Source: Armatimonadota bacterium
Lineage (GTDB): Bacteria; Armatimonadota; HRBIN16
DNA length: 64,000 bases
Direction of reading: 5' to 3'
Assembly (NCBI GenBank): GCA_963677485.1
Contig: OY781964.1
Coordinates: forward strand, 1,824,001 to 1,888,000
Every line of letters begins with the position of its first letter. The first letter of the stretch is position 1. Below, piece after piece: positions 45,809 to 49,468 of the stretch. The notes below the pieces were generated by a model. The model was not told the DNA's origin, searched no databases, and saw only the letters and a list, made by a program, of their open reading frames with translations. A program made the translations under genes and the position numbers.

Positions 45809-47023
45809 ATGCCTGATGTTATTTATCCAAACTACAAACCGACAGACCCCGATGCACAGGTGATTCTGCAGGAAGACGGACGGATACGCATCGGGATATG
45901 CGATGAATCGGCTCACGAGATCGCGCGGTGCTGGGTATTCGCACGGCATATCGCCATCGGCAAAGCGCGCACCGGAATGGGCGGGATCAGCTACGTCTCA
46001 ACCGATGAGGAGCACCGCATGAAGGGGCTTGGCCGCCGCCTAATGATGGAGACCAACCGGTTCTGCCAGAGTGTGGGCATGGGCATCATCATGCTCTACG
46101 GCATACCCGACTATTACCCCAAATTCGGATATGCGGTCTGCGGGCCGGAATACCGCGTGGAGCTGCACAACCCCGATGTCCACGCAAAACTGCCGGAGGG
46201 CTGGAGCAGCCGCGAGGCGGAAGTGGAAGACCTGCCTGCCATCAGGGCAATCTACCGGCACTGGCTGGATAAGGGCTGCTGCGGAGCTCATGACAGGCAA
46301 AGTAATCTGGACCCCGCCTGGCTGAGCCTGGAATATGACTGCATGAGGCACAACATCGACGAATGCCAGCTGGTCTGTTCACCGCATGGCGATGTCGAGG
46401 GTTATGCATGGCACTGCCGGAGCAACAACTTTATAGTTGGGGCCGAACAGCAGGAGCCGGAAACCCTGGTGTGGGGTGAGGTGATGGCCCTTAACCCTGC
46501 GGCCGCCGATGCAGTGGTGGCCGTCTGCCAACAGCTCATGACCATCATAGGGTTATTGACGGACCGCAACCTCAGCAAGATCACCTTCTCCATTCCGCCG
46601 CATGGCGAGGTGGCCAACGCGCTGCGATGGGGGCACAGCCGCTTCCGGCACGACTTCCAGAAGGACGCCTGGTTTATGTCACGCTGTGCGGATGTCGGCC
46701 AGTTGCTGAAAGATATGCTTCCAGAATTTGAGTTGCAGTGTCGCCATCAAGGCGTGCTGGAGGCCCGGCTGGTGATCAGCGTCGATGGCTTACAGCACCT
46801 GCTGACGGTGCATCAGGGGATTTTCAACTACGAAAAGTGTATCAGCCAAAAGCCAGACCTGGAGTTGAGCAGCGGGCAACTTTCGCAGCTTGTGCTGGGT
46901 GCCTACACGGTCGATGAATTTTATTCTCGGCAGATAGTCAACGTCAACCCTGAGGTGATCAATATCTGCAAGGTTCTGTTCCCGAAGCGGTTTAACCACG
47001 TGTTTGTGCGAGACAGGTTCTAG
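45809..47023 (+). CDS. Eis-like GNAT acetyltransferase
   Basis: GGISYVSTDEEHRMKGLG, LYGIPDYYPKFGY; C-terminal SCP-like region. Confidence 0.85.
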   Translation: MPDVIYPNYKPTDPDAQVILQEDGRIRIGICDESAHEIARCWVFARHIAIGKARTGMGGISYVSTDEEHRMKGLGRRLMMETNRFCQSVGMGIIMLYGIPDYYPKFGYAVCGPEYRVELHNPDVHAKLPEGWSSREAEVEDLPAIRAIYRHWLDKGCCGAHDRQSNLDPAWLSLEYDCMRHNIDECQLVCSPHGDVEGYAWHCRSNNFIVGAEQQEPETLVWGEVMALNPAAADAVVAVCQQLMTIIGLLTDRNLSKITFSIPPHGEVANALRWGHSRFRHDFQKDAWFMSRCADVGQLLKDMLPEFELQCRHQGVLEARLVISVDGLQHLLTVHQGIFNYEKCISQKPDLELSSGQLSQLVLGAYTVDEFYSRQIVNVNPEVINICKVLFPKRFNHVFVRDRF

Positions 47024-47431
47024 CCGTCGCCCTGTATCAACGGATACACCTTAACACAATGGCGCAAGGGGGTAAAGACGCAAAGGGGAATGGTTGTGGG
47101 CACCGCGCACGCATCGCGTGCGGTGCCCGGGTTAGGGAAAACCTGCGCGGAGATCGGTAGATACTGTGGCTTTTGTCAAGTCCCCAGGGGCAAATCTGGG
47201 GATTTGGACCTGAATATCAGACACTGGCTCTAGACCACGTAGAATAACGTTAATGTGATGTTTGTGGCATATAGACCAAACCTGGATCCGCGACAGAAAC
47301 AGGCTCAGATGGCATCAGTTGGTCCGTAGCACCTCACATGACGCTCGGAGTCGCGAACGAACGTGCGACATCTTCGTGGCTTCGAAAGATATCGTTATGC
47401 TTCGATGCGTGCTATCGGCAGACTGCCGCAG

Positions 47432-48708
47432 CTAGGATACTGGTGTCAGAACCCTCGGTTTGTTGCCCACCCGACTGCGCGATGGCCGGTTTCGGGATGC
47501 GGGCCGACCACCGCCGGCAGGAGTGGGCTCATTGGTGGGATTTCCATCCACGCATCCCCGTCTTGGAACGCTCACGTCCAGCCCAGGATCATTGCCTACA
47601 CCGGCTATATCATGGGCCGCTCCGGCACGATCCTGGACATGTCCGTTCGCGTCGGTCAGCGGTTGCTGGTTGGCCGCATTTGAAGCTTGTTCGATGCCGA
47701 AGTTTGGATCATATGGCTGACGGCTGATTAATACCGACCACATGAGCACCAGCTGCTTGCGCATGATTGCGCACCGGACAACTCGCTTGGACTTCGGTTT
47801 CTTATTGGGATTCTTTACCAAATTCGGATGCTGCAGTTCCTTCACGAAGTCGTGCATGCTCTGGCCAAGCTTTTTCGACTTACCGTTGACCATCTTCACC
47901 ACAGTGCTCGATCCACAGTAGAGTAATGTCCGCATATATCGGTCACCCATCTTGGATATGGAGCCGTCGTATGTCTTGCAGCTTCCTGACCGTTGCGGGC
48001 AGGGGTTCATTCCGAAATAGCGCGCGACCGCTTTCGATGTTTCAAATCGTTTAGCATCACCGATTTTCGCAAGGAAATAGCTTGCTGTGACGTCGCCGAT
48101 ACCCGGAATGCTCTTCAGCAGAGCCATATCTTCGGTCATCTGCGGTGAACTCATCACAAGCTCTTTGATCTGAACATCAAGCTTTTTGATGCCCATGTCA
48201 TGAAAAGCGATCATCTCGTCCAGCACTGTGCTCCGCGTAAGCCGACAGCTTTGGCGCTGGGCGATCGCCTCATACGGCGGTCATTGGTGTAACCAATAAG
48301 CGCATCATAGCATGCTAGACGAGGGACATAGAGTGAGACATTGTGACTTTTCACATAGTCAGCGATTAGCACGCTGTCAGAGCAGTCCGTCTTTTGTTCC
48401 CAGCCTTTGGCTTTGCGGTGATAGAGAACCCGTTTTGGCTCCAGTTGGACAGCATCGTGCTGGTGCTCGTAGAGGTAATCAAGCAGCGGTCGGCTGTAAG
48501 GCCCGGTGGCTTCAGCCGCATACAAGGCGGGAGTTCGGGTAAGCTTCTTCACCCATGACAACAACTCCTTGTATCCGGCCTTGTTGTTCTTGAACTCCTT
48601 ATGGTCTATCGGCTTGTGCGATGAACCTAATACAGACGCGTCAAACGTCAATTTCGAGATGTCGATCCCGACATAATGGATGTAGATTTTGTCTTCAACT
48701 TCGTGCAT
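47432..48708 (-). pseudogene. IS110 recombinase/transposase, frameshifted near 48270
   Basis: RuvC-like DEDD half (VGIDISK, AEATG, KTDCSD) in 48211..48708; Tnp half (SIPGIG, RSGS, ISKMGD) in 47432..48226, different frame. Confidence 0.88.
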
Positions 48709-48741
48709 GTGGTAATCTCCAGTTGGTAGTGATTGATGGTG

Positions 48742-48940
48742 CAATCAACCAAATCAGCCTAGCGAACACGGGGTTTTCTCCCAAGATACTGTTCGATATG
48801 GGTTGATTGGGAGAAGGATGCCTATCTACGTCACGGTGTTTTCCACCAGGGGCGGTTCCGGCATCCAATCCTTCTCCTTCACCCCCAGCTAAGGGGTGAG
48901 ATTAGCTCCCCGACTGCTTTTGGTGTCCGGGGAGCTCACC
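48742..48940 (-). ncRNA. Bridge RNA of the IS110 element
   Basis: 5' hairpins, then target-binding loop (LTG AACCGCCCCT 48848-48857, RTG TGACGTAG 48826-48833) and donor-binding loop (LDG ACAGTATCT 48784-48792, RDG GCTAG 48759-48763), each closed by stems; transcript ends approximate. Confidence 0.82.
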
Positions 48941-49225
48941 ATATATAGCGTACTAGGGGCGGTTCGCGAACCGCCCTTCTTGCATGCGCCACGATCACCC
49001 GTGGTTGCCCACCATTACCATCGGTCCTATCCGTCGCATCCGTCGAATTCCCGGATTGTCTGAACCGCGGATGAACACGGATGGACGCGGATGGGGAGGG
49101 AAATACCAATCGGGAGATTGGCGTGCCCAGGGCGGTAGGCTATCCCGTAATTCGGGGAATCCGTACACTTTGGCGCCCGAACCCGCCATAATGAAGATGG
49201 TAGGTCACCCCATATCGGAGGAAAC

Positions 49226-49468
49226 ATGAATTTCATCGTCTGGATCGTCATTGCGGCCATCGTCTACAACCTCATTACAGGCAACGGGCAGAAGAACGCG
49301 GGTATTCTCATATTGGGCATGATGGCTATTGTTCTGCTGGTGGTGGGAATGGTGGCTGTCAGAATCGCCTCTGTGTTGTTCCCTGTGGCTATTGTGGTTG
49401 GGCTCATCTATGTGGGCACACGCTACCTTGGCGGCGGCGGCAAGGGCGGCGGGTATTTCCCTAAGTAA
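49226..49468 (+). CDS. Small hydrophobic membrane protein
   Basis: GGAGG RBS; 80 aa, 2-3 TM segments. Confidence 0.7.
   Translation: MNFIVWIVIAAIVYNLITGNGQKNAGILILGMMAIVLLVVGMVAVRIASVLFPVAIVVGLIYVGTRYLGGGGKGGGYFPK

Follow-up and report, generated by a model that had tools for sequence, protein, structure and literature searches.

Insertion sequences of the bridge-RNA kind have been known since 2024. IS621 of Escherichia coli, with its 177-nt bridge RNA, is the closest described system to the element considered here (PMC11208160, PMC11208158). In the passages of the cited papers on which we draw, here and below, IS621 encodes a two-domain DEDD/serine recombinase of 326 amino acids in which mutation of D11, E60, D102, D105 or S241 abolishes recombination (PMC11208158), and a left-end RNA composed of a 5′ stem-loop, a target loop and a donor loop, with a left guide of 9 nt and a right guide of 4 nt that both include the core (PMC11208160). 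According to the handshake rule, separate handshake guides pair with the non-cognate DNA at position 7 (PMC11208158). The target is a repetitive extragenic palindromic (REP) sequence ending in CTAC, and a promoter is rebuilt in the circle (PMC11208160). Durrant et al. characterize the IS110 group, to which such elements belong, by a long left end and a short right end, and predict that thousands of IS110 orthologues possess bridge RNAs in which a 5′ stem-loop accompanies variable target loops (PMC11208160). Here, we describe an IS110-group insertion sequence on the minus strand of a 64,000-nt stretch of an Armatimonadota bacterium genome (assembly GCA_963677485.1, contig OY781964.1, positions 1,824,001 to 1,888,000; hereafter the window, to which coordinates refer unless another contig is named). 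We present evidence that the element, whose copy in the window spans 48956-47159 with its flanking cores, very probably moves by bridge-RNA-guided recombination of the IS621 type.

ISPpu10 of Pseudomonas putida has REP targets, the left target being the 3′ arm of a GC-rich stem-loop (bioRxiv 10.64898/2026.03.19.712850), and its minicircle forms a strong hybrid promoter (PMC12288879). The present element resembles it in its targets and in its predicted circle-junction promoter, whereas the host phylum and the guides differ. The ISCro4/IS622 bridge recombinases for genome engineering (PDB 9t56; bioRxiv 10.1101/2025.05.14.653916) belong to the same protein family. The IS1111 group shares the recombinase family and carries its bridge RNA, the guides of which are also called seekRNAs, in the right end, whereas the RNA region lies in the left end here. 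With IS621 the element shares a two-domain DEDD/serine recombinase with the five catalytic residues, a predicted left-end RNA with a 5′ stem-loop, target loop and donor loop, a CT core, a left-target guide of 9-10 nt, a right-target guide of 4 nt, a fit at the first handshake position, a REP-type target ending in CTAC and, by prediction, a promoter that forms anew when the circle closes. It departs from IS621 in its host, which is assigned to Armatimonadota from the name of a protein 98% identical to a neighbouring gene product, in the low similarity of its protein, in its length of 1810 bp with a non-coding right end of 271 nt, in having two 5′ hairpins instead of one, and in a recombinase of 430-442 instead of 326 amino acids, the excess being due to an internal insertion and a tail of about 89 residues that is modelled as disordered.

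The genome that contains the window (G000; 5.22 Mb in one contig, C1) holds 12 copies of the element. All 12 begin and end with the same bases, lack terminal inverted repeats and bear CT on both sides (the right core of the window copy is at 47160-47159), and their outer flanks are unrelated. An alignment of the copies revealed a 16-bp indel, six variable single-base columns and no other variation, which suggests that the element family is young or active. An earlier annotation made from the letters of the window alone (the sequence-only reading) had quoted the junction and loop motifs of a bridge-RNA element; all of these are found on the minus strand where it had placed them, and the ends it drew recur in every copy.

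The sister genome G001, from the same genus, is without this element: a search with the 1810-bp sequence returned just partial matches of 69-79% identity to a different relative. The orthologous locus in G001, located via a neighbouring gene, contains the same left flank, the same 20-nt palindrome, a single CT and the right flank, with nothing between, and the 15 nt starting at the CT core match the right flank of the window at 15 of 15 positions. This empty site fixes the ends and the CT core of the window copy. If the ends were instead off by 5 nt, the bases with which the left end opens would belong to the target, after the REP hairpin and CT, and TAC would be duplicated on insertion; element-free REP hairpins followed by CT and the first 5-7 bases of the element do occur in both genomes and would then be empty sites. 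The orthologous empty site, however, reads hairpin, CT and AC onward, as the standard register predicts, all four guides include the CT core in that register, and the heptamer with which the element begins (AGTACGC) opens none of the 12 right flanks. The shifted register is ruled out for the window copy by the empty site in G001, and as a general account it is scarcely credible.

Both IS110 transposase domains are present in the open reading frame (ORF) fragments of the window copy, PF01548 on 48744-48211 and PF02371 on 48226-47432 (Pfam). The intact protein encoded by other copies was aligned by phmmer to the IS621 transposase (8wt6_A, E 2.7e-28, query residues 22-286 of 442) and matched the ISCro4 transposase (9t56_A, E 5.3e-26). 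Once the two extra N-terminal residues of the PDB chain are allowed for, D28, E78, D120, D123 and S258 align with the five essential residues of IS621 in the order given above, and all five are invariant in an alignment of the clade. A search of 5.8 billion clustered proteins yielded only seven relatives of at least 41% identity, five of them 61-95% identical and 430-433 amino acids long and two 41-42% identical with 400 amino acids; among the 120 best matches listed, the other relatives share no more than 34% identity and nearly all have 306-375 amino acids. Judged by these comparisons, the element is a divergent member of a rare clade, at most 34% identical to ordinary IS110 proteins. The C-terminal extension is common to the clade, and the reading frame is kept open in proteins of 387-433 amino acids. 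Tail substitutions in three pairs of the 400-residue relatives show no excess at third positions (9/10/8, 6/12/6 and 3/7/5), counts that are too small to decide; the tail may function as protein, or the reading frame may simply extend into the right end.

The left end of the element is predicted to be a highly structured RNA. Its 225 nt fold with a minimum free energy (MFE) of -86.6 kcal/mol (z -3.85; none of 200 shuffles folded as well) into, successively, two 5′ hairpins, a stem with an internal loop and a second stem with an internal loop. With guide definitions taken from PMC11208160 and PMC11208158, both loops contain sequences that correspond to the DNA they would recognize. In the window copy, 11 contiguous nt of the left end repeat without mismatch the last 9 nt of the left flank and the CT core, and the left-target guide matches the left flank at 10 of 10 positions in six copies, 9 of 10 in four, 8 of 10 in one and 6 of 10 in one. 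For the left-donor guide, all nine positions agree with the final 7 nt of the element and the CT after them (9/9). On its 3′ side, loop 1 can pair with CTAC; past these four bases the flanks of the 12 copies depart from the loop. The corresponding side of loop 2 can pair with CT and with the two bases that open the element, and a G-T wobble comes next. The first handshake position fits in both loops, and the second fits in the target loop only. Among 5000 mononucleotide shuffles of the 225-nt left end, the full left-flank 10-mer arose once and the full right-end 9-mer three times. No stretch of 7 nt or more in the right end is identical to target or donor. These matches are those that the sequence-only reading had proposed for its left-target (10/10), left-donor (9/9) and right-donor (CTAG plus wobble) guides. 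It had also listed mismatches between the right-target guide and the site beyond CT-AC; they are real and are no defect, since the right guide of IS621 is 4 nt including the core.

Comparison with related elements provides further variants of the same arrangement. A second related element in G000, with a protein about 42% identical, its own guide set and its own hairpin targets, is present in two copies (loci L014, G000:C1:1296596-1298392, and L013, 2667671-2672044), and an insertion of about 2.56 kb breaks up one of them. A third element lies in G001, and further variants occur on two metagenome contigs, their proteins being 41-42% identical to that of the window element. A scan of genome contigs for relatives found only the element of the sister genome (41-42%) and distant IS110 loci; a scan of metagenomes found four loci of the 41-42% type, one of which (L103) ends at a contig edge and is without a left end. 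The window element, the second element of G000, the G001 element and two metagenome elements have five different left-target guides, each matching its own left flank: over 11 nt for the window element, 9 for the second element and a contiguous 11 for the G001 element, and at 8 of 9 positions for each metagenome element (relatives counted by eye). The left flank of each relative is the 3′ arm of a different hairpin. Furthermore, between the two element types, a change in the first bases of the element goes with a change in the right-donor guide. The five left ends align with one another, and their consensus fold contains 73 pairs, 14 of them with compensatory changes, which also preserve the first 5′ hairpin.

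This co-variation bears on whether the folded left end might be a leader that regulates transposase expression through translation or stability, the identities to the flanks being carried or copied pieces of target and not guides. In favour of such a leader, Rfam holds no matching family, and ISPpu9 has been suggested to produce small RNAs with a modulating effect on expression (PMC11208160). Nevertheless, the identities sit in both internal loops, in the order and strandedness of IS621 and each including the CT core; five relatives have five loop sequences, each matching its own flank; and the recombinase keeps the catalytic set of IS621. We regard a leader without guides as very improbable.

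Guides that direct recombination are the reading we prefer, and the fold that would present them recurs outside the clade. A covariance model built from both loops of this clade (R1) was matched over its full length in 5 of 100 distant IS110 loci at E <= 1, and in 4 at E <= 0.002. Each of these matches is on the coding strand and stops 7-55 nt short of the recombinase match, so that the same fold stands directly upstream of the recombinase gene in distant IS110 loci, a comparison that the sequence-only reading had suggested. R1 has no match in the right end of the element; its match in the window (48739-48882, minus strand) is unsurprising, since an identical copy went into building the model. 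The assignment of the locus to the IS621 bridge-RNA architecture is thus upheld by the Pfam domains together with what is directly observed, namely the shared ends, copy number, empty site, identity and co-variation of guides with flanks, and conservation of catalytic residues and fold. Every defining feature of an IS621-type bridge-RNA system that can be tested on sequence appears to be present, and by analogy with IS621 we infer that the RNA is made, binds the recombinase and guides recombination.

Several observations weigh against this interpretation. R1 found no match in 95 of the 100 distant loci, misses that carry little weight because the model contains about one effective sequence. 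Rfam 15 has no match to 46800-49300 at E <= 1; either the library is without a bridge-RNA family or none in it reaches this sequence. The non-coding left end measures 246 nt and the right end 271 nt, a figure that depends on the disordered tail being coding, so that the right end is not the shorter and the long left and short right ends of the IS110 group are not seen here; that trait is a typical one and not a defining one. Pairing of the right-donor guide extends over 4 nt and the wobble and no further, and in copy L012 the left-target guide matches just 6 of 10 flank positions. A consensus scan of 47000-49100 found no sigma-70-like promoter on the minus strand of the integrated copy, which fits expression that depends on the circle junction, chromosomal expression being possible as well; the single promoter-like site on the plus strand (shuffle mean 1.8) and the lack of terminators in the same scan say nothing useful. 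Finally, the metatranscriptome contigs that align to the window come from relatives, 90-99% alike, carry no information on strand, ends or level, and may include DNA.

In the mechanism that we propose, the left end of about 246 nt would encode an RNA made up of the 5′ hairpins and two stems with internal loops. Loop 1 would pair with the host target, in which the CT core and AC follow the 3′ arm of a REP-like hairpin, and loop 2 with the joined ends of the excised circular element, while the DEDD/serine recombinase encoded downstream would exchange strands at the CT core. Circularization would place the perfect -35 sequence of the right end 17 nt from the -10-like box of the left end, and transcription of the RNA and of the recombinase gene would start from the resulting junction promoter. 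With the two ends joined in this way, TTGACA is followed by a 17-nt spacer and a TAnnnT hexamer with three of six consensus bases. The distance between TTGACA and the end is constant over the 11 related right ends listed, and the layout of the junction is the same in relatives (by eye).

Ten metatranscriptome runs hold 5-12% of sampled words, and four of these were aligned to the window as Logan contigs, in which parts of the window without cover carry no meaning. Sequence of relatives, left end included, is present in these RNA libraries. A 176-nt contig of run X6 lies wholly on 48737-48912, spanning hairpins and both loops, with a word depth of 19.8; the run has one further contig, which falls on the gene with a depth of 2, is more divergent and possibly derives from another organism. 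The X6 contig is a weak hint that the left end is expressed as RNA. A contig of run X2 joins sequence resembling the right flank to sequence resembling the left flank (window positions 47128 and 48956) with 13 other bases between, and is probably a repeat mosaic of another organism and not an empty site of this locus.

The recombinase gene of the window copy is broken, as the sequence-only reading had noticed in calling it frameshifted and proposing a search for an intact copy. The frameshift is a 16-bp deletion relative to ten of the 12 copies, which are 1810 bp long and in which the frame stays open over 442 codons, or 430 when counted from the first ATG; one intact copy lies at G000:C1:2334975-2336784. 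Because the deletion splits the gene, the window copy cannot make recombinase. The same deletion is present in a copy at another locus with different flanks (L002, the window copy being L001), and the occurrence of one deleted form at two such loci indicates mobilization by the recombinase of intact copies. From the sequences, the deleted form at the second locus was most likely moved by recombinase supplied from the ten intact copies. An IS110 recombinase, that of ISPpu10, reportedly acts in trans. It is also conceivable that the window copy is a dead, immobile relic and that L002 acquired the deletion by gene conversion, for which 12 near-identical copies offer ample substrate; L001 and L002, the deletion aside, differ at one of the six variable columns. 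On the other hand, the deleted form is identical to intact copies at both ends and throughout the RNA region, and the deletion has no flanking direct repeat (read by eye) that would make it recurrent. Gene conversion without movement is in our judgement unlikely, and mobilization in trans remains the account that we favour. In a contig of metatranscriptome run X1, 84 window bases around the deletion are replaced by 100 other bases, and this difference of 16 bases agrees with the intact form.

The hairpin at the target is the same or similar to the left of 10 of the 12 copies. A 9-mer consisting of the last five bases of the hairpin arm and CTAC occurs 228 times in the genome, and the whole palindrome pattern was matched 88 times, which we take as about 44 copies because a palindrome reads the same on both strands. 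CTAC follows the palindrome at 19 places without an element, so that many potential targets are still free. The genome contains three genes for IS200-like Y1 transposases, which fits a REP system. The intergenic DNA of the genus is a mosaic of several palindromic repeat families, seen at 49040-49130 of the window and at many places in G000 and G001, and a 900-nt piece beside one copy of the element matches 71 places in the sister genome. Three copies of the 23S rRNA (G000:C1 near 197330, 2015241 and 3003232) contain, before the sarcin-ricin loop region, a stretch resembling the left junction; it consists of seven left-target bases including CT and the first six bases of the element, without the AC of real targets, and is probably a coincidence.

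At seven or more sites in G000, a REP-type hairpin precedes CT and 6-7 bases from the start of the element, beyond which the DNA is unrelated. A 12-nt pattern for such tailed sites has seven matches in the sister genome (loci L135-L141), although G001 is without the element, none in a reversed control, and one in all among 29 other relatives; the second element type has analogous tailed REP sites. The two bases that complete the heptamer past the ordinary CTAC ending follow at only 6% of the 228 sites, and chance is therefore not the explanation of the tailed sites. One tailed site and its orthologue differ by a clean 3-nt indel, another has a diverged tail in both genomes and is old, and a third is distinct from the true empty site, being a neighbouring REP at a distance of about 290 nt. 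The flanks of the tailed REP at locus L017 (G000:C1:2009186-2012217) match places about 1.9 Mb apart in the sister genome, which puts this site at a synteny break, and for a further site only short repeat-like pieces, and no collinear match, were found there. The idea that the tailed sites are non-autonomous left ends with cargo was rejected, as the nearest 9-mer resembling a right end on the same strand is at least 90 kb away (sites checked by eye). Candidate origins are a scar of element loss, a REP subfamily that acquired the half-site from an occupied copy, and a product of abortive recombination. That the tailed sites are traces of IS110 activity, left by a loss pathway that keeps the half-site or by an abortive top-strand event, is a quite doubtful proposition. 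If it were true, right-donor half-sites would outlast dead elements, since the sister genome has seven such sites and no copy of the element; they would form a genomic fossil record of bridge-RNA elements and could be half-match substrates for the donor loop. A full-text literature search on IS110 footprints at repetitive extragenic palindromic sites returned no report of tailed sites.

Table 1. Positions of the insertion sequence, its predicted RNA and its target in the window, and of tailed REP sites elsewhere in the genome.
Feature	Position	Strand	Basis or remark
REP-like perfect palindrome, 20-nt hairpin	48957..48976	-	3′ arm is the left target (LT) of the left-target guide
Left CT core dinucleotide	48955..48956	-	kept in 12/12 copies; empty site in sister genome with single CT
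Insertion sequence body	47161..48954	-	1794 bp in window; 1810 bp in intact copies
Right donor half-site (RD), first 7 nt of element	48948..48954	-	
-10-like TAnnnT hexamer of predicted circle-junction promoter	48952-48947	-	junction read
Two 5′ hairpins of predicted RNA	48879..48936	-	48936-48904 and 48899-48879 in MFE fold
Target-binding stem with internal loop (predicted)	48810..48877	-	fold and guide matches
Left-target guide (predicted)	48857-48848	-	5′ side of first internal loop
Inner hairpin of target-binding stem	48848-48834	-	
Right-target guide (predicted)	48829-48826	-	3′ side of loop 1
Handshake dinucleotide, target loop	48825-48824	-	
Donor-binding stem with internal loop (predicted)	48742..48809	-	fold and guide matches
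Left-donor guide (predicted)	48792-48784	-	5′ side of loop 2
Inner hairpin of donor-binding stem	48783-48770	-	
Right-donor guide (predicted)	48763-48759	-	3′ side of loop 2
Handshake dinucleotide, donor loop	48758-48757	-	
N-terminal recombinase fragment, RuvC-like DEDD domain	48211..48708	-	ATG at 48708, premature stop past frameshift; PF01548 E 6e-20
16-bp deletion junction (frameshift)	48270..48271	-	alignment columns 685-700 absent in 2/12 copies
C-terminal recombinase part, shifted frame	47432..48270	-	coiled coil, Tnp domain with catalytic serine, ~89-residue tail, stop codon; PF02371 E 1.9e-22
C-terminal tail, residues 354-442 of intact protein	47435-47701	-	AlphaFold confidence score (pLDDT) below 50, no secondary structure
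Right end	47161..47201	-	hairpin 47201-47182, TTGACA 47179-47174, left donor half-site (LD) 47167-47161
Right CT core plus right target AC (CTAC)	47157..47160	-	CTAC 3′ of element in 11/12 copies, CTAT in 1/12
Heptamer-tailed REP sites	G000:C1 near 264922, 1990840, 2010709, 2382961, 2851066, 2869711, 3436709	+, +, +, -, -, -, - respectively	

The sequence-only reading had presented the element as a new, divergent orthologue with a different target guide and extra 5′ hairpins. Its divergence holds, and its novelty was overstated: a different target guide is to be expected, and the element is not a new mechanism, because Durrant et al. predict bridge RNAs in thousands of orthologues, and the additional 5′ hairpin departs only modestly from the known form. 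The element or its clade might already figure in the orthologue tables of Durrant et al. The element leaves the current understanding of the mechanism unchanged. It represents a fully documented natural system, predicted to be a bridge recombinase, from a little-studied phylum, and offers as a resource both intact and defective copies in one genome, a genuine empty site, five guide variants matched to their own targets, and a REP-hairpin target of a type recently reported to add specificity. As a candidate orthologue, it may serve to explore how far the rules of IS621 reach in a recombinase that shares no more than about one third of its residues with ordinary members of the family and carries a tail modelled as disordered.

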